DNA of 35,481 nt from a virus (Duplodnaviria > Heunggongvirae > Uroviricota > Caudoviricetes), in the IMG/VR virus record IMGVR_UViG_3300033068_001655; one strand, 5' to 3'. Positions 933 to 30,802 of the stretch are shown in pieces (position 1 is the stretch's first letter; each line of letters begins with the position of its first letter). Made by a program: the position numbers and the translations under genes. The notes under the pieces are model-generated. The model searched no databases and was not told the DNA's origin. It saw nothing but the letters and a program-made list of their open reading frames with translations.

Positions 933-1013
933 TACCCCGTGTAGGATTCGAACCTACATTTTCAGCTTCCAATTACCCTTAACTGTTTAGAAGACAGTCG
1001 GGACTAACGGGGC
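933..1013 (-). tRNA. Rearranged tRNA-like RNA, anticodon UCU (Arg), 81 nt
   Basis: 7-bp acceptor and T arm intact; ACTGT-CTTCTAA-ACAGT arm starts 8 nt after the acceptor; D-loop-like AATTGGA lies 3' of the anticodon arm. Confidence 0.7.
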
Positions 1014-1018
1014 ATATT

Positions 1019-1474
1019 TTATTTACGACAATATGTTTCAGTTTGACTATGGCAATTCGGACACAAAATTCTAAGATTTAATAACCTATTATCCATATTA
1101 TTACCATTTATATGATCTAAGTGCATTACAATTGGTTTACTATTCCAATCAGTTAGTTCACATATTTCACATTTGTTCTCTTTTAATTTTGCAGAGAATA
1201 ATTTTTCTTTTAATCTACCATTATTTGTGTAGGTAGAATTTTCTATTAAAATTTCCTCAAGAGAACAAGTCTTACCAAAATTTCTATATCTGGTTCCACT
1301 ATTCCATCCTTGTCCTGTAAAGTGTGAGGTGTCAATTTCTAATAATTTAAAATACTTTTTTAGTGTTTTATAATTACCACCAACTGGTCTCATTTCTAAT
1401 TTTCTACAGACTTCTGCAACGGATAGTGATTCTTTTACTATCGGTTCTAATGTTTCTTTATTATACTTACTCAT
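1019..1474 (-). CDS. HNH homing endonuclease inside the Leu/Arg tRNA operon
   Basis: CEIC...HLDHINGNNMDNRLLNLRILCPNCH motif. Confidence 0.88.
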   Translation of the reverse strand: MSKYNKETLEPIVKESLSVAEVCRKLEMRPVGGNYKTLKKYFKLLEIDTSHFTGQGWNSGTRYRNFGKTCSLEEILIENSTYTNNGRLKEKLFSAKLKENKCEICELTDWNSKPIVMHLDHINGNNMDNRLLNLRILCPNCHSQTETYCRK

Positions 1475-1725: not shown

Positions 1726-1745
1726 ATTTTGTGACATTTTTTTTG

Positions 1746-1817
1746 TGACCCCACAGGGATTCGAACCCCGATTGAAAGCTTAGAAGGCTTTAGTCCTATC
1801 CGTTGAACGATGAGGCC
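1746..1817 (-). tRNA. tRNA-Arg(UCU)
   Basis: AAAGC-CTTCTAA-GCTTT arm, canonical cloverleaf. Confidence 0.93.
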
Positions 1818-2587: not shown

Positions 2588-5554
2588 TTAAATAAGTTTA
2601 AGTATTCCTATATTATAGTGTATTTCATATTTATCTAAACCAGTACCTTGTGCATTACTAGGTCTTATTAATTCATTTCTACTTGCATCTACTAAAGAAC
2701 CTTTACTTTTTAAAGTAACTGATTCAACTGAGTCACCTGATAGTAATCCTTTTACTCTAAATTCATTACCAATGAATGTGAATTCTTGACCATATATCTT
2801 TTCTTGATCTAATGCAATTATTGATAGATTTGGTTTCTTTTCAGTATAGTAGATATTTATATCACCAAAGTCAACACCATTGTTACACTTATATAGGTAT
2901 CTATCATATAATTTACTATATCTTATTTTATCTAATCTTTTACTTTTTTTATTTTTCTTTCTAATTTCTTTTAGAAAAGGTCTTATTGTAGTAATATCAA
3001 TTATATCTTCTGATGCTATTTTTTGTTTAAAATCATCTAAAAGTTGTTTTACATTGACATAATTAGATTTTATATTAACTTTATATGGGACAGTATTAAT
3101 AGATACTAATTTAGAAAAATTAAGATTATTTATAATATGTGAATATGAAGTATCAGTTGCAATTCTATTTAATCTTATTTCTGGATGAGTACCTTCATTT
3201 TTCTCTTCAATCAAATGGTATAATACATCTTCTGAACCAATTGGATTAAAACCTGGTCTTTTAGCAACACCACCATATTTTGCTAATTTCTTCCCATTCT
3301 TACCCCATACTTTATTTAGTGCTCCTGCTATTTTTTCTTTTTTACCATTAACATAAAGTGTAAATTTATACAATGTTGTTTTACCAAATTTTTTATACCC
3401 GGATAAAAGTTGTAAAAATTGTTTATAAGTATTAGTTGCATCAATATTACCATATATTTTACCTGAATAAGAAACTAAAACTGAATTAGATTTAATTTTA
3501 GTAGAAAGTACTTTTCTTTTTAAATCTAATTCCATTTTAATTGGATCAATAAGTGAATCTCTTTTCTCTTCCAATGATTGTATTTTATCATCTATTGCTA
3601 TTTGATCACTATTATCATATAAAACACCATCATATGTAAATGTTTGGTTTGTGTAGATGCCTTCTACAAGAAGTGTTTTTTTATCTTCTATTGCATTATT
3701 AAAATTATCATAGTAATTTTGTGCAAAGGTATAATAATGAGATAGTCTTTTTTCTGCTACTTTTATATCATATGTTGTATTATCATAAGAAACATTATTG
3801 GAGTAGTATTGACCTCTTTTTAATTCAACATCTCTATTATTTATTTCTCCATTATAATAATTAGATATTCTATCTAATTCATTAGTAGCAACTTCTTTTG
3901 CGGAAGTTTTATTATCCACATTGAAGGTAGTTCCATCAAAGATGATAGGTCTATTTATATATGTATTATTTTCTACTAATGTAGTTTGATTGTCCATAGC
4001 TATTTGAAGTCCGCTAATATGATTCTGCTTTGAAGAAATTGCATTAAGTAATCCATCTTTGCTATTATATGTTAATGTATTAGAAGTTGTACCCAAAATT
4101 GTTGTACTAGTAAATATTGGCATATCATTTTCTGTAAAAGCTCCTGAAATTGAATCAACATCATAGATTGATGTATATTCATCCCAATCAGAAATTAGTT
4201 TATCTAAAGCTAACTGTTTATTAGAAACTGCTATTTGTGCATCAGAAATTGTATTATACGTACGTCCTTCAAATGAAAAATATTCACTTGCAGTATCAAT
4301 GGCATATTGAAATCTTGTAGTATAATCTTTTATATAATTTCTGGCATCATCAATTGTATTAAATGTTGCACCATTTATTGAAAAGGTTTCCTTTGCAGTG
4401 TTGATAGCATATTCAAACTTTGAATAGTAATCATCTGAATAACTTTTGAAATTGTCTAAAGCCATTCTTGCTTCTTCAATTGTATTGTAATTTCTATCTA
4501 AATATTCAAATTGTTCTCTTGATTTAGTAATTACATATTGAAAATCATTTATAGGTTGACTTAATAATTCATATTGTCGATCTATATAGTTTTGTGCATC
4601 ACTAAAATTACTAAATGACATACCATTAAAAGAAAATGCTTGTGCATTTAATAAGGAATCATCTATTGTTTTTTTAAATTCTTTAATAAACTCTTTAGAA
4701 TTATTTAAGTATTCAATATCAAGTCTTACCTCATAAAAATTACCTAATTCAAATTTATAGTCAGTATATACTGATAACTTTTTATTTTTATCATAAGTTA
4801 TACTTGCAGCAATTGAAAATGGACTAAACTTATTTTGATACTTTGCTTTTAAATAATATTCTTGTGTTTGTTGATTAGGTTTAATTGGTGGTATTTTATC
4901 ACTGAAGTCAACACCATAAGGAGCCATTGCACCAAATGAAATGTTATTGTTTCCGTTTTGATTTTCATAATTAAATGATATTAAATCACTTCTTCTTGTT
5001 GTATATTGTTTAAGTACCTTATTTCTTCCATAAGTCTTTGCAGGAAATCTGTTTAATCTAAAATTAAAACCTACTGAGTATTTATCTTTGATTTTAATAT
5101 CATGTAGATATTTATCTTGATTAATACTCGGATTTTTACTTATACTTAAATTTGGTTTACCATCATAGTGAGTTAAGTCATCAATAAGTCCTTGATTGGT
5201 CTTATTAATACCCAATACTTCACCATATTCTATTTTAGAACAATTAATAATTAAATCACTATATGGAGTATAGTAATCTTTAGTGCTTATTTCAGGTGAG
5301 TAATGAAATGCAGTTTTATAACCTGAATTAGAATAGTTTGTATCATTTAATGTTTTAATATGATCATTTAATGTAGATGATATTACATCTAACTTATTTA
5401 ATACTTCAACTGGTAGGTTGACTTGTTTAGAATTTATAATTTTAGTTGAAACTCTATTTTTAAATGACTCTAGTTGTGTTTTGTTAAATTCTGATAAATT
5501 TAAAGCTCTTTCATGATCAATATTTATACCTTTGATAAAATCGTTTATATTCAC
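2588..5554 (-). CDS. Large repeat-containing protein with C-terminal MBG-like domain (possible virion/adhesion protein)
   Basis: GTG start; internal F-x-x-x-G-x-x-(F/Y)-x-T-x-x-(D/E)-A repeats; C-terminal KIYGQE...GLLSGDSVESVTL...NAQGTGLDKYEIHYNIGILKL resembles MBG(YG) adhesin domains. Confidence 0.6.
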   Translation of the reverse strand: MNINDFIKGINIDHERALNLSEFNKTQLESFKNRVSTKIINSKQVNLPVEVLNKLDVISSTLNDHIKTLNDTNYSNSGYKTAFHYSPEISTKDYYTPYSDLIINCSKIEYGEVLGINKTNQGLIDDLTHYDGKPNLSISKNPSINQDKYLHDIKIKDKYSVGFNFRLNRFPAKTYGRNKVLKQYTTRRSDLISFNYENQNGNNNISFGAMAPYGVDFSDKIPPIKPNQQTQEYYLKAKYQNKFSPFSIAASITYDKNKKLSVYTDYKFELGNFYEVRLDIEYLNNSKEFIKEFKKTIDDSLLNAQAFSFNGMSFSNFSDAQNYIDRQYELLSQPINDFQYVITKSREQFEYLDRNYNTIEEARMALDNFKSYSDDYYSKFEYAINTAKETFSINGATFNTIDDARNYIKDYTTRFQYAIDTASEYFSFEGRTYNTISDAQIAVSNKQLALDKLISDWDEYTSIYDVDSISGAFTENDMPIFTSTTILGTTSNTLTYNSKDGLLNAISSKQNHISGLQIAMDNQTTLVENNTYINRPIIFDGTTFNVDNKTSAKEVATNELDRISNYYNGEINNRDVELKRGQYYSNNVSYDNTTYDIKVAEKRLSHYYTFAQNYYDNFNNAIEDKKTLLVEGIYTNQTFTYDGVLYDNSDQIAIDDKIQSLEEKRDSLIDPIKMELDLKRKVLSTKIKSNSVLVSYSGKIYGNIDATNTYKQFLQLLSGYKKFGKTTLYKFTLYVNGKKEKIAGALNKVWGKNGKKLAKYGGVAKRPGFNPIGSEDVLYHLIEEKNEGTHPEIRLNRIATDTSYSHIINNLNFSKLVSINTVPYKVNIKSNYVNVKQLLDDFKQKIASEDIIDITTIRPFLKEIRKKNKKSKRLDKIRYSKLYDRYLYKCNNGVDFGDINIYYTEKKPNLSIIALDQEKIYGQEFTFIGNEFRVKGLLSGDSVESVTLKSKGSLVDASRNELIRPSNAQGTGLDKYEIHYNIGILKLI

Positions 5555-25855: not shown

Positions 25856-26329
25856 TTATTCTCCGAGTAATTGTTTTAATTTCTTTTCTCTTAACAAAGC
25901 AGGTGCTAATTTTGGTTCATGTTTAATAATGAAATTTGTAATCTCTGTCAATATGTCACAGTTTTCAAATTCTTCTCTACGACCTGTTTTATTGTTCCAT
26001 AGTAACCAACCTGTTTGATCAAAAAATTCAAATTCCCAATCGAATTTCTTGTATTCGTTTTGAGTATCTCTCCACCCTGAATACCATTCTAAAGTAACTT
26101 CTGTTACCAAACTTTCGTCATTATACCAAACTAGTTTTATATTGATGTCGGTATGTCGTTTAGTATCTTTATAAACTAAAGTAAAATTACTTTGATGTCC
26201 AAATTGTCTATTTTCATACCTTTCATATATGTCAAAATACTGCTTAACAAAATTTTTTATTTGTTCAACAGTATGACAATCTTCTCTTTGTTTAATTCTT
26301 CGAGGTGTGTTTCTATTAATCAATTTCAT
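25856..26329 (-). CDS. Hypothetical protein with C-terminal motif
   Basis: Ends LLREKKLKQLLGE. Confidence 0.7.
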   Translation of the reverse strand: MKLINRNTPRRIKQREDCHTVEQIKNFVKQYFDIYERYENRQFGHQSNFTLVYKDTKRHTDINIKLVWYNDESLVTEVTLEWYSGWRDTQNEYKKFDWEFEFFDQTGWLLWNNKTGRREEFENCDILTEITNFIIKHEPKLAPALLREKKLKQLLGE

Positions 26330-26898: not shown

Positions 26899-27666
26899 TT
26901 ATATTAAATCTAAATCTATACCGTGAGTGTCCCACCACCATTCTTTAGGTTTATCCTTATGTTTATCTTTTAATCTTTCCCATTTCACTAAAATTCTTTC
27001 TTGTCTTTGGACTTCATCATAGTAAAATTGGTGTTCAATAACTATATTATCTTTATGACATAATCTTAGTAATTTTCTTAAAAGATAACCTTGTCTATTA
27101 TTACCTGGTACAAACCCACTTTCAATTATCTTTTCAACGGTTTCTATTAAAGTATCTTTCTTTGACTTACTAGTTTTATTTAAAACCATTTCTAATCGTT
27201 CTAAACCAAAACCAACGTCAATACAAGTACCTAATGGATTCACAATGTTTCCAATTTCAATACCGTCTTTGTAAAACTCAGTACAATAACCTCCTATATC
27301 ACCATCAGACCAAATACATTCTTCATCAAATCTAACTTCTATATCTGTATAAAAATCAGACCATTCAGGTTTATCTGGGTGTATAGTAACATAATCAGGT
27401 GTAATACCTATTATTTTTAAAAATTCTAACCAATAATTTATTGTTTGTGAAACAGTCCATTCTCTGAATGAGAAGAACCCTATCATATTGAAATAAAGTA
27501 AATGTGAACCATCCCCTATTTCGTCTATATCATTTAATCTTAAACAAGATTGTATATTTGATATAGTTCCTTTGTAGTTTAAGTCTTTAAATTTAGACTT
27601 GAATTGTTGCATTCCTGCTGGACAAAATAATGTAGTTTCGTCATAAGACCTAACATTATCATCCAT
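26899..27666 (-). CDS. alaS: Minimal alanyl-tRNA synthetase (aminoacylation domain only; true start uncertain)
   Basis: TTLFCPAGMQQFK, QSCLR...DEIGDGSHLLYFNMIGFFSF, IDVGFGLERL and GNNRQGYLLRKLLR; no editing (HxxxH) or C-Ala domain. Confidence 0.88.
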   Translation of the reverse strand: MDDNVRSYDETTLFCPAGMQQFKSKFKDLNYKGTISNIQSCLRLNDIDEIGDGSHLLYFNMIGFFSFREWTVSQTINYWLEFLKIIGITPDYVTIHPDKPEWSDFYTDIEVRFDEECIWSDGDIGGYCTEFYKDGIEIGNIVNPLGTCIDVGFGLERLEMVLNKTSKSKKDTLIETVEKIIESGFVPGNNRQGYLLRKLLRLCHKDNIVIEHQFYYDEVQRQERILVKWERLKDKHKDKPKEWWWDTHGIDLDLI

Positions 27667-28598: not shown

Positions 28599-28673
28599 TG
28601 GACACAGGGGGAGTCGAACCCACTCATGAAACCTTCCTTGCAAAGGAAGTAGTCTGCCGTTGACTTCTGGCCC
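28599..28673 (-). tRNA. tRNA-Ala(UGC), imperfect acceptor/T stems
   Basis: CTTCC-TTTGCAA-GGAAG arm; G3:U70, A73. Confidence 0.8.
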
Positions 28674-28683
28674 ATTTTTTTTG

Positions 28684-28757
28684 TGGAAAATACCGGGATC
28701 GAACCGGTGACCTCTTATCTGCCAGACAAGCGCTCTAACCATCTGAGCTAATTCCCC
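28684..28757 (-). tRNA. tRNA-Ala(GGC)
   Basis: CTTGT-CTGGCAG-ATAAG arm; G3:U70. Confidence 0.93.
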
Positions 28758-28837
28758 ATTATAATTAAAGTGGTGTATAAAAATTTACATCTAACGTCTT
28801 AGATATAGAGATTTCTATAACTTAAACCACTTATCTG

Positions 28838-28909
28838 AGCGAAAAACGGGGGTTGAACCCGCGACCCCCACCTTGGCAAGGTGGTGCTCTACCACTGAGC
28901 TATTTTCGC
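28838..28909 (-). tRNA. tRNA-Gly(GCC)
   Basis: CCACC-TTGCCAA-GGTGG arm; U73. Confidence 0.96.
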
Positions 28910-28956
28910 CTATTGGAGCCGGACCCTGGGACTAACAGGGAGTCCTCCGGCATGTG

Positions 28957-29029
28957 TGCAGGAGAAGGGAGTCGAACCCTCGTCTGAGCATTGGAAGTGC
29001 CCTATATTTAGCCGTTATACGACTCCTGC
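28957..29029 (-). tRNA. tRNA-Gly(UCC)
   Basis: GGGCA-CTTCCAA-TGCTC arm; A73. Confidence 0.92.
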
Positions 29030-29038
29030 AATTTATTG

Positions 29039-29126
29039 AGCGAGTGACAGGATTCGAACCTGCGACGTGAACCTCATCTGACTGATTTGGAAGACCAGTG
29101 CCATCGACCAACTAGGCGACACTCGC
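29039..29126 (-). tRNA. tRNA-Gly(UCC) with 18-nt variable region
   Basis: CTGGT-CTTCCAA-ATCAG arm; T arm identical to tRNA-Thr at 12-93. Confidence 0.87.
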
Positions 29127-29135
29127 ATATTTTTG

Positions 29136-29216
29136 TAGGCAAGATGGGATTCGAACCCACGTTTTCAAGTTACCGCTACAGGTATAGAATGTATAAGATT
29201 CCACTGCTACTTGCCT
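29136..29216 (-). tRNA. Rearranged tRNA-like RNA, anticodon UAU (Ile-AUA), 81 nt
   Basis: AGGCAAG/CTTGCCT acceptor, GGAAT-CTTATAC-ATTCT arm, D-loop-like AGCGGTA 3' of it, intact T arm. Confidence 0.68.
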
Positions 29217-29222
29217 ATGTTG

Positions 29223-29297
29223 TAGTCTATACGGGATTCGAACCCGTGTCTTACCCGTGAAAGGGGCACGTCCTAGACCTGACTAGACGAATAGACC
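29223..29297 (-). tRNA. tRNA-Glu(UUC)
   Basis: TGCCC-CTTTCAC-GGGTA arm. Confidence 0.93.
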
Positions 29298-29305
29298 ATT
29301 TTTTG

Positions 29306-29379
29306 TACTCTTGACGGGAATCGAACCCGCATTTACATCAGCTTGAGAAGCTGGAGTCCTACCGTTAGACGACAAGAGC
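29306..29379 (-). tRNA. tRNA-Glu(CUC)
   Basis: CAGC-TTCTCAA-GCTG arm. Confidence 0.9.
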
Positions 29380-29388
29380 ATTTTTTTG

Positions 29389-29456
29389 TGGGATGCGAGA
29401 GACTCGAACTCTCCTGCTAGGGTTTTACAGACCCGGCTATCACCATAATCCATCCC
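29389..29456 (-). tRNA. Compact atypical tRNA-Tyr(GUA), 68 nt
   Basis: GGGT-CTGTAAA-ACCC arm, miniature D arm TAT-GGTG-ATA, short variable loop. Confidence 0.65.
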
Positions 29457-29467
29457 GATTATATTTG

Positions 29468-29540
29468 TAGTGTATGTCGGATTCGAACCGACGTCCTCCG
29501 CTTTGAAAAAGCGTAATCCTTACCGCTAGACGAATACACC
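29468..29540 (-). tRNA. tRNA-Glu(UUC)
   Basis: CGCT-TTTTCAA-AGCG arm. Confidence 0.9.
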
Positions 29541-29548
29541 GTATTTTG

Positions 29549-29630
29549 TGGGCAGAGAGGGATTCGAACCCCCGAACTCGAAGAGAACAGATTTACAGTC
29601 TGCCAGCTTTAACCACTTGCATATCTACCC
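29549..29630 (-). tRNA. tRNA-Tyr(GUA)
   Basis: GCAGA-CTGTAAA-TCTGT arm, class II. Confidence 0.95.
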
Positions 29631-29640
29631 ATTATATTTG

Positions 29641-29712
29641 TACTAGTGACGGGACTCGAACCCGCATCTCCCGGTTTGAAAAACCAGTTTCCTGCCATTA
29701 GAAGACACTAGC
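29641..29712 (-). tRNA. tRNA-Glu(UUC)
   Basis: CTGGT-TTTTCAA-ACCGG arm. Confidence 0.88.
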
Positions 29713-29732
29713 ATATTTAATTTTAATTCAAT

Positions 29733-29771
29733 AAAAAAAACCCAATCTGATTTTTAAGTCAGATTGGGTTT
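29733..29771 (-). terminator. Intrinsic terminator/attenuator of the Glu/Tyr/Ile/Gly/Ala operon
   Basis: AAACCCAATCTGA-CTTAAAAA-TCAGATTGGGTTT plus U run; ends 20 nt before tRNA-Glu. Confidence 0.88.
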
Positions 29772-29797
29772 GTTATATAATAATGTGCTTTAACTCA

Positions 29798-29899
29798 TTA
29801 CTTTATAGACATAACGCTACTGACCGATGGTATTCTATACCCCGCTTCATATCCGCCTATGGCTTCTATAGCTATTGTTATGTTAGTAATTGTTGTCAT
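29798..29899 (-). CDS. Putative attenuator leader peptide 3 (33 aa, MTTITNITIAIEAIGGYEAGYRIPSVSSVMSIK)
   Basis: Hand-translated. Codons 9-21 encode only Ile(ATA), Ala, Glu, Gly and Tyr; lies between a promoter and the terminator. Confidence 0.8.
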   Translation of the reverse strand: MTTITNITIAIEAIGGYEAGYRIPSVSSVMSIK

Positions 29900-29968
29900 T
29901 TTTTCTATTTTTTAAATTGTTGTTTTTAATTCTTCTAGTCATTTTTAATGACTCTCGTTCTTCGAGTA

Positions 29969-29999
29969 CAAAGATACGATAAGTTTTTTAACTACCAAA
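29969..29999 (-). promoter_or_regulatory. Bacteroidota-type promoter (TTTG-N19-TATCTTTG) for leader 3
   Basis: -33 element at 29996-29999 and -7 element at 29969-29976. Confidence 0.78.
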
Positions 30000-30026
30000 T
30001 CTTTTTTTAATTTTTTTTATTCTTAG

Positions 30027-30099
30027 TAGCGGGAGAAGGACTCGAACCTCCGACCTCAAGGTTATGAGCCTTGCGAGCTGCCTACTGCTCTATCCCGCG
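30027..30099 (-). tRNA. Initiator-type tRNA-Met(CAU)
   Basis: C1:U72 mismatch; CAAGG-CTCATAA-CCTTG arm. Confidence 0.92.
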
Positions 30100-30229: not shown

Positions 30230-30802
30230 TCAATTTTTTTCAACTTTTTTCATTATTTTTTTAATTTCTTCTTTAGATTTCTCTAAATCAACATTTTCTA
30301 TTACAAAATCTGCTAATTTAGCTTTATCTTCATCAGACCATTGACTTCTTATTCTTTTAAGAACTTCTTCCTTAGTAGTGTTATCTCTACTAATAACTCT
30401 TTCAACTCTTACATCTTCTGGTGCAGTAACTAAAATTGTATAATCACAATCTTTATAAGCACCACTTTCAAATAAAATTGCCGCTTCTTTAACTACAATG
30501 TCATATTGTTTTGACCAGTTGATAAAGTGTTGTCTTACTTTTGGATGAATAATCTCGTTTAACTTTTTAAGATTACTCTCATTTCCGAATACAAAAGTAG
30601 CTAACTTTTTTCTATCTACCAAATTATTTTCGATAATTTCTTCACCAAAAGTTATTCTTAATTCATTTACTACTTTTGGTGTATCAAGTAATTTCTTAGC
30701 TTCATCATCAGCAATATAAATAGGATAACCCAAAGATTCAATATACTTTGTGATTGTTGTCTTACCAGACCCAATACCACCAGTTATACCTACTATTTTC
30801 AT
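30230..30802 (-). CDS. coaE: Dephospho-CoA kinase
   Basis: VGITGGIGSGKTT, IADDEAK, VDRKKLA, IIHPKV, EAAILFE and ADFVIEN motifs. Confidence 0.95.
   Translation of the reverse strand: MKIVGITGGIGSGKTTITKYIESLGYPIYIADDEAKKLLDTPKVVNELRITFGEEIIENNLVDRKKLATFVFGNESNLKKLNEIIHPKVRQHFINWSKQYDIVVKEAAILFESGAYKDCDYTILVTAPEDVRVERVISRDNTTKEEVLKRIRSQWSDEDKAKLADFVIENVDLEKSKEEIKKIMKKVEKN

Follow-up and report, generated by a model that had tools for sequence, protein, structure and literature searches.

We propose that two 81-nt RNAs, RNA1 and RNA2, are probably working elongator tRNAs in which the D-arm half has been re-threaded and the acceptor/T-arm half is ordinary, a reading that comes from sequence comparison and that we hold with good confidence. 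Both are encoded in the window (the whole 35,481-nucleotide stretch of the IMG/VR virus record IMGVR_UViG_3300033068_001655 that was analysed), whose DNA is low in GC (about 27%) and whose closest public relatives are the uncultured phages LR745206 and LR756502 (635–642 kb). All genes of interest lie in two minus-strand tRNA arrays, at 11-1817 and 28599-30099. The initial annotation had placed a rearranged tRNA(UCU) at 933-1013 and a second 81-nt RNA of the same plan at 29136-29216; both were confirmed, on the minus strand. The features are the following.

933-1013, minus strand: RNA1, putative rewired tRNA with anticodon UCU (Arg, codon AGA), 81 nt, CCA not encoded
1007-1013, minus strand: RNA1 acceptor 5' strand (nt 1-7), pairing with 934-940 by 7/7 standard pairs
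1005-1006, minus strand: RNA1 U8 A9, invariant in 134/134 family rows
1003-1004, minus strand: RNA1 upper D-like helix, 5' strand G10 U11, pairing with C49 and G48 at 965-966
1000-1002, minus strand: RNA1 lower D-like helix, 5' strand C12-C14, pairing with G36-G38 at 976-978
982-998, minus strand: RNA1 anticodon arm, 5 bp and 7-nt loop CUUCUAA, anticodon UCU at 989-991
967-975, minus strand: RNA1 relocated D-loop-like bulge, U, A(14), A(15), UU, G(18)G(19), A(20), A
958-964, minus strand: RNA1 connector UGAAAAU, its last U (958) being the Y48 equivalent, with partner A at 973
941-957, minus strand: RNA1 T arm GUAGG / UUCGAAU / CCUAC (T stem 98% paired in the family)
933, minus strand: RNA1 discriminator, the A73 equivalent, read from the sequence
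1745-1817, minus strand: ordinary cloverleaf tRNA-Arg(UCU) in the same array as RNA1, found by ARAGORN and Rfam (54.2 bits), with an acceptor sequence unrelated to that of RNA1
29136-29216, minus strand: RNA2, putative rewired tRNA with anticodon UAU at 29193-29195 (Ile, codon AUA), 81 nt, plan as in RNA1
29204-29207, minus strand: RNA2 D-like helix, 5' strand, G10 (29207) pairing with C48 (29169)
29170-29178, minus strand: RNA2 relocated D-loop-like bulge, U, A(14), G(15), C, G(18)G(19), U(20), AA

Read from its 5' end, RNA1 comprises the first strand of a 7-bp acceptor, U8 A9, GUCCCG, the anticodon arm, UAA, GGG, U, AAUUGGAA, GC, UGAAAAU, the T arm, the acceptor 3' strand and A73. Its upper helix consists of G10-C49 and U11-G48; a further U50-A9 pair could form, both bases being invariant and hence giving no covariation signal. 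The lower helix of RNA2 pairs C11 A12 G13 (29206-29204) with G38 U37 C36 (29179-29181), its G10-C48 pair is a double change relative to the C-G of most relatives, and the partner of its G15 is C56 at 29161.

Standard tools handle these genes poorly. ARAGORN called 18 tRNAs in the window, and a run over the whole window with introns allowed gave no call at 933-1013 or 29136-29216. The Rfam tRNA model RF00005 scored RNA1 at 35.7 bits and RNA2 at 32.8 bits, above its gathering score of 29, so that by score both are tRNAs in the broad sense; in the whole-window run, RNA1 was dropped by the default filters and was recovered only with permissive ones. Both RNAs have a perfect 7-bp acceptor, the 5-bp T stem with T-loop U54 U55 C56 R57 A58, and a 5-bp anticodon stem closing a 7-nt loop with U33 and R37; between the anticodon arm and the T arm lie about 24 nt with the motif A-R-Y(Y)-GG, and the discriminator is A in both. 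What they lack is the canonical D hairpin (stem 10-13/22-25 between nt 9 and nt 26): A9 is separated from the anticodon stem by only 5–6 nt, and RF00005 aligned both RNAs with the D arm deleted and 21–22 nt inserted in the variable region. We considered a hidden cloverleaf or an intron and rejected it, since no contiguous excision yields a D stem-loop-stem before the anticodon arm and ARAGORN with introns came back empty. The other Rfam families returned nothing for RNA1 or RNA2 (E up to 10) except chance-level matches to plastid UTRs (E 1.5–4.5). The initial annotation had called for comparison with allo-tRNA and Y RNA models, and the RNAs belong to no Rfam family beyond generic tRNA; Y RNA, allo-tRNA and the other families were rejected because no model matched, the acceptor/T branch is 7/5 with covariation, and neither RNA1 nor RNA2 has a variable-arm hairpin.

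Relatives were collected with three pattern scans of IMG/VR, one for each RNA type of the window and one blind to the anticodon (connector and T arm only), after which a covariance model, R1, was built; a second model, R2, included the upper-helix pairs. A member of the rewired class was defined by U8 A9, a nested 4–5 bp helix capped by the anticodon arm, a U-A-R-YY-GG-N bulge, a connector Y paired with R, and an ordinary T arm. RNA1 (61.6 bits with R1, 83.9 with R2) and RNA2 (94 and 47.8 bits) belong to this class by their scores, which lie far outside what chance would give, and by the pairs, which are present in both. Together, the pattern scans and R1 produced 134 matches scoring at least 39.6 bits, of which 132 are distinct; R1 scored the 18 ordinary tRNAs of the window at 37 bits or less and the ordinary tRNAs in the members' loci at 38 bits or less. 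The covariance model and phage metagenome search that the initial annotation had put forward as a check thus returned homologs with covarying stems.

The members, 77–83 nt long, carry Arg anticodons in 75 cases (UCU, UCG, ACG, CCU and GCG), Ile anticodons in 56 (UAU, GAU and CAU) and the anticodon CCA in one, and this near-exclusivity for Arg and Ile persisted under the anticodon-blind pattern. That pattern also gave a first view of their distribution: family members made up 58/114 of its viral matches and 2/122 of its prokaryote-genome matches, as sorted by a rough classifier, the prokaryote-genome matches being mostly ordinary Glu, Gly and Gln tRNAs. We conclude that the rewired class is a large, almost purely viral family. 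Its members come from phages of Pseudomonas, Salmonella, E. coli, Vibrio and Maribacter and from uncultured giant phages. ARAGORN found 13 of the 132 and missed 119, giving the correct anticodon in only 9. The sole member with neither an Arg nor an Ile anticodon (CCA, Trp; L253 2068-2145) has G after GG and C as discriminator.

Public phage records hold members as well. With blastn, full-length homologs were found in LR745206 and LR756502, each of which has three rewired members, and a core 82–87% identical was found in Pseudomonas podophages of the PA11 group, where the gene ends with an encoded CCA and either lacks annotation or overlaps a CDS for an HNH endonuclease. Model searches of whole records located members at 25951-26029 in Felix O1 and at 51874-51952 in phi92, both unannotated in the RefSeq records and both with an encoded CCA. 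In the rewired Arg(UCU) subfamily that these two (L341 and L342) make up, the internal loop has 8 nt (CGUUAACC) and the connector just 4 nt; the HNH endonuclease CDS annotated in Felix O1 begins inside the rewired tRNA. The counterpart, in PA11 and Felix O1, of the ORF upstream of RNA1 (1019-1474) is an HNH homing endonuclease. The same search of the whole T5 and KVP40 records found no member, and blastn with RNA1 against E. coli genomes gave no match.

Two further kinds of gene were seen among the loci. Some UAU members are 89–90 nt long, with an extra small hairpin inserted in the connector (L192 6559-6648, L149 8578-8667, L072 5764-5853, L168 1901-1989, L198 7499-7587, L202 278-366 and L229 11715-11803); the loop of this hairpin, GAUAA or GAUAG, resembles the anticodon loop of tRNA-Ile(GAU). 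Two tRNA-Ser(GCU)-like genes of 78–79 nt (L202 884-961 and L198 7150-7228) have a long variable hairpin and only about 9 nt between the acceptor and anticodon stems, and may represent another reduced-D-arm design.

Pairing is conserved throughout the family. In the model-based alignment A3, 96.3% of cells were paired, against 58% in shuffles (0/500), and sliding the partners by 1–3 columns reduced pairing to 39–46%; RNAalifold returned the same consensus structure. The acceptor stem was 97.6% paired with covariation at 7/7 pairs, the anticodon stem 96% paired with covariation at 5/5 and the T stem 98% paired, so that the 7/5 branch covaries in all 12 pairs. Hundreds of compensatory double changes were counted, spread over all five helices and across unrelated phages. 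The genes might, in principle, be decayed or rearranged tRNA pseudogenes that look conserved only through kinship of the phages: tRNA finders reject them, and the window does contain a weak, mismatched tRNA-like gene at 28599-28673. Decay would not keep pairing, however, and here compensatory double changes occur in every one of the five helices in unrelated phages and the loops are invariant. We regard this explanation as extremely improbable, refuted to our satisfaction by the covariation counts. The suggestion in the initial annotation of a conserved class rather than decay is thus borne out by 132 distinct homologs with compensatory changes in every helix.

The same comparison was used to read the re-threaded half. 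Of the lower helix, two pairs are never unpaired (CG118/UA11/AU3 and GC71/AU33/CG26/UA2), and the third is formed in 71% of members and unpaired in 29%; helix types include CAG/CUG, CGU/ACG, CGA/UCG and CAU/AUG. The initial annotation had drawn a 4-bp D-like stem, GUCC/GGGU, enclosing the anticodon arm, with a GG-containing D-loop-like segment 3' of that arm. Enclosure of the arm and the 3' position of the segment are supported by the homologs' covariation. The stem itself can form in RNA1 but is complete in only 6/52 relatives with a 6-nt spacer, whereas the CCC/GGG register (nt 12-14 with 36-38) was found in 52/52 (3/3 pairs in 36 and 2/3 in 16). A mutual-information scan added a contact between the nucleotide just 5' of the lower helix and a connector base, which belongs to an upper helix in which the 1–2 nt after A9 pair with the 1–2 nt preceding the conserved UG of the connector. 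Because model-made alignments lean towards the model, the counts were repeated on fixed offsets and on MAFFT alignments. At fixed offsets in 52 members, the upper-helix pairs were GC27/AU16/CG2 (x1:q) and CG29/UA7/UG6/AU3 (x2:p), and neighbouring offsets failed. In A4, a gapless MAFFT alignment of 26 Arg members that was fitted to no structure, they were GC14/AU10/CG2 and CG18/AU3/UA3/UG1, with 98% pairing. Model R2, which includes these pairs, reproduced the result on 126 distinct sequences.

By the register test, the fixed offsets and MAFFT, the GUCC/GGGU register is therefore replaced by CCC/GGG with G10-C49 and U11-G48. It follows that the GG segment, which the initial annotation had put in the place of the variable loop, does lie 3' of the anticodon arm but is a bulge inside a nested 5-bp helix rather than a free loop. 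The secondary structure suggested by these counts is fully nested: a 4–5 bp helix capped by the anticodon arm, its 3' strand made up of 3 nt, a bulge of 8–9 nt and a further 1–2 nt. In many members the lower helix has just 2 bp, and length shifts between the internal loop and the connector from one subfamily to another. Single-sequence folding misses the proposed fold, which lies above the optimum (−21.3 versus −26.5 kcal/mol for RNA1 and −10.5 versus −20.2 kcal/mol for RNA2), and for this reason thermodynamic folding was not counted as evidence.

The bulge reads as positions 13-20 of an ordinary tRNA: its consensus is U (133/134), A (134/134), R, one or two pyrimidines, GG and N. The R of this motif and the last base before the T stem are A-U in 85 members, G-C in 45 and another combination in 2 (130/132 matched). 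Both states occur within single anticodon classes (10 and 10 for GAU, 31 and 3 for UAU, 39 and 3 for UCU), this was the only non-helical pair among the top 18 of the mutual-information scan, and none of the search patterns imposed it. We conclude that this covariation is the behaviour of the Levitt pair 15-48. The canonical core nucleotides, U8, A14, R15/Y48, G18G19 and the T-loop, are thus all present. Because U8, A9, A14, GG and the A-rich connector are invariant, covariation is silent on their tertiary roles.

These observations bear on whether the RNAs could be functional tRNAs without a canonical core. In such a molecule the helix would only lengthen the anticodon stem, GG would belong to a floppy variable loop, and the whole would be a flexible 'boomerang' like the D-armless mitochondrial tRNA-Ser. 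The missing D hairpin fits this description, as do the many members whose lower helix has only 2–3 bp, the connector and internal-loop lengths that differ among subfamilies (an 8-nt loop and a 4-nt connector in Felix O1 and phi92) and the modest single-sequence energy of the proposed fold. We nevertheless consider it unlikely. Hardly any variation is seen in the A-R...GG motif or in the T-loop UUCGAAU, R15 and Y48 covary with the canonical Levitt-pair signature, the upper 2-bp helix anchors both ends of the bulge, and the molecules are full length (77–83 nt), unlike the shortened mitochondrial D-armless tRNAs.

Residues that synthetases read follow the anticodon. In E. coli, ArgRS relies mainly on A20 and C35 as determinants, and those of IleRS include A73 and the anticodon loop. 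In the family, GG was followed by A in 75/75 Arg-anticodon members and by U or G in 54/56 Ile-anticodon members; the discriminator was A in 56/56 Ile members and free in Arg members. All anticodon loops have 7 nt, with U33 in 134/134 and A37 in 133/134. The base after GG and the discriminator thus vary by anticodon, so that synthetase-readable marks follow it, a pattern that would be hard to explain unless the RNAs were charged. The A20 and A73 marks, together with the CCA encoded in cultured phages, may be taken as indirect signs of aminoacylation.

Under the re-threaded reading, RNA1 would decode AGA after charging by the host ArgRS, and RNA2 would decode AUA after charging by IleRS. After U8-A9, the chain would descend a 4–5 bp helix straight into the anticodon arm, which caps that helix. 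The returning 3' strand would contribute 3 bp, then the bulge of D-loop sequence U-A14-R15-YY-G18G19-N20, then 1–2 bp, UGAAAA-Y48 and the T stem. The bulge is expected to dock on the T-loop through GG, with R15-Y48 and A14-U8 contacts as in ordinary tRNA. A core docked in this manner would preserve the L shape, the anticodon-to-CCA distance and the ArgRS and IleRS identity marks despite the changed order of strands.

The codons concerned are in heavy use. Under the standard genetic code, which fits the ORFs of the window, AGA accounts in the long ORFs for 78% of the arginine codons and AUA for 41% of those for isoleucine; AGA is the commonest Arg codon and AUA a very common Ile codon of this AT-rich phage, so that RNA1 and RNA2 would serve heavily used codons. 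In LR745206 (L003 1416-2938), rewired Ile(GAU) and Arg(UCU) genes adjoin cloverleaf genes for Arg(UCU), Ile(GAU) and Ile(UAU), showing that both body plans are retained for the same anticodons. With cloverleaf isoacceptors beside them, the rewired copies are not mere replacements, and simple codon supply fails to explain why the rewired form is kept.

This coexistence makes the rewired copy look redundant for decoding, as it would be if the RNAs were tRNA-like but non-decoding, serving either as decoys for synthetases, for enzymes that modify tRNA or for host defence nucleases that cleave it, or as another kind of regulatory RNA. The viral character of the family (58/114 viral against 2/122 prokaryote-genome matches, by the rough classifier) also agrees with such a role. 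Yet a decoy for an anticodon nuclease needs no perfect 7-bp acceptor, no discriminator that tracks the anticodon, no A20 that tracks Arg and no encoded CCA, all of which are aminoacylation features, and the codons served are those that the phage uses most. A non-decoding role therefore seems rather improbable to us. The re-threaded, decoding tRNA is our preferred reading. The presence of ordinary isoacceptors alongside the rewired copies hints that phage–host conflict may be involved.

Compared with ordinary class I tRNA-Arg(UCU) and tRNA-Ile (RF00005), the rewired RNAs share the 7-bp acceptor with its discriminator, the 5-bp anticodon stem, the 7-nt loop with U33 and A37, the 5-bp T stem with loop UUCGAAU, U8, the A-R...GG...A motif and a 15-48-like pair; A20 is shared by the rewired Arg members, and the rewired length is close to normal. 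They differ in that no D hairpin separates nt 9 from the anticodon stem. Their D-loop sequence is instead on the 3' side of the anticodon arm, bulging from a helix whose 5' strand starts right after A9, which places the anticodon arm inside the D-like helix, as its cap. The junction is accordingly three-way in the rewired RNAs, as opposed to four-way in ordinary tRNA.

The D-armless mitochondrial tRNA-Ser(AGY/AGN) of animals likewise has no D hairpin and an anticodon stem that follows the acceptor within a few nucleotides, and some of these tRNAs have a UCU anticodon (PMC4013460, PMC7609411). They measure about 60 nt (55–65), lack G18G19 and the conserved T-loop, are flexible and need adapted partner proteins (PMC4013460, PMC7609411). 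RNA1 and RNA2, in contrast, have 81 nt, GG, the T-loop UUCGAAU and every conserved core nucleotide, and, unlike the mitochondrial tRNAs, the rewired phage RNAs would have to work with ordinary bacterial enzymes. Allo-tRNAs are also non-canonical and came from metagenome mining, some of them in phages (Mukai et al. 2017, PMC5389517), and UAU and Arg anticodons are frequent among them (PMC5389517). Their acceptor/T branch is 8/4 or 9/3, their variable arm is long, and so is their D stem, which is capped by a tetraloop (PMC5389517), whereas the rewired RNAs have a 7/5 branch, no D hairpin and no long variable arm. The permuted tRNA genes of Cyanidioschyzon merolae share with the rewired genes a non-standard order of tRNA parts, but there the permutation is at the gene level, the 3' half preceding the 5' half, and processing restores the cloverleaf (PMC3728597). 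The rewired RNAs keep the acceptor strands at the two ends and no simple cut-and-join would turn them into a cloverleaf, which means that the rewiring must be present in the mature RNA.

We found no description of a tRNA of such wiring in bacteria or phages in full-text literature drawn mostly from outside subscription journals, and the architecture is described neither in a 2020 review of non-canonical tRNAs nor in the allo-tRNA paper (PMC5389517). We put at an even chance the broader proposition that the family is an aminoacylated, ribosome-active class of non-cloverleaf Arg and Ile tRNAs, L-shaped, undescribed in print and kept for a property of the rewired body itself. The rewired body might, for example, evade an enzyme of host or phage that recognizes the D-arm.

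The consequences would reach beyond these phages. Outside animal mitochondria, tRNAs are taught as invariably cloverleaf. To our knowledge, RNase P, the CCA enzyme, the synthetases, EF-Tu, the ribosome and the modification enzymes are all thought to rely on the cloverleaf shape. If the core nucleotides are kept in another order, the tRNA fold would be reachable by a second topology, and the family would offer a natural test of which contacts are truly required by ArgRS and IleRS. Arg and Ile tRNAs would be systematically undercounted in phage tRNA inventories and in the codon-supply arguments based on these; Felix O1, phi92 and PA11 each contain one unannotated member of the family.

The surroundings of the two arrays yielded several further observations. 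Pfam gave no match for the 151-aa ORF at 1019-1474 (minus), directly upstream of RNA1, or for the 988-aa ORF at 2588-5554 (minus), and the Pfam scan of ORFs around RNA1 and RNA2 revealed nothing that links the neighbours to the RNAs. A strong terminator-like hairpin (1838-1867, minus) lies just 5' of the array that holds RNA1, and a short Leu/Arg-rich ORF (1896-2057, minus) lies upstream of it. Near-identical tRNA bodies with different anticodons, UGU and UCC, are found at 12-93 and 29039-29126 (both minus); they share a GCxAGUG acceptor, the D-loop UAGxUGGUCGA, the T arm CGCAGG/CCUGU and discriminator U. The variable region of Thr and Gly tRNAs is normally 4–5 nt; in this pair it is unpaired and extends, unusually, to about 12 and 16 nt. 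The weak tRNA-like gene at 28599-28673 (minus; anticodon UGC, Rfam 29.2 bits), with mismatched acceptor and T stems, adjoins a good tRNA-Ala(GGC) and is possibly a copy in decay. A 255-aa ORF (26899-27666, minus), some 1 kb away from the Ala tRNA genes, matches alanyl-tRNA synthetase over the N-terminal catalytic core alone (Pfam tRNA-synt_2c, 74 bits, profile positions 27-203 of 552), and an ORF for dephospho-CoA kinase (CoaE) lies at 30230-30802.
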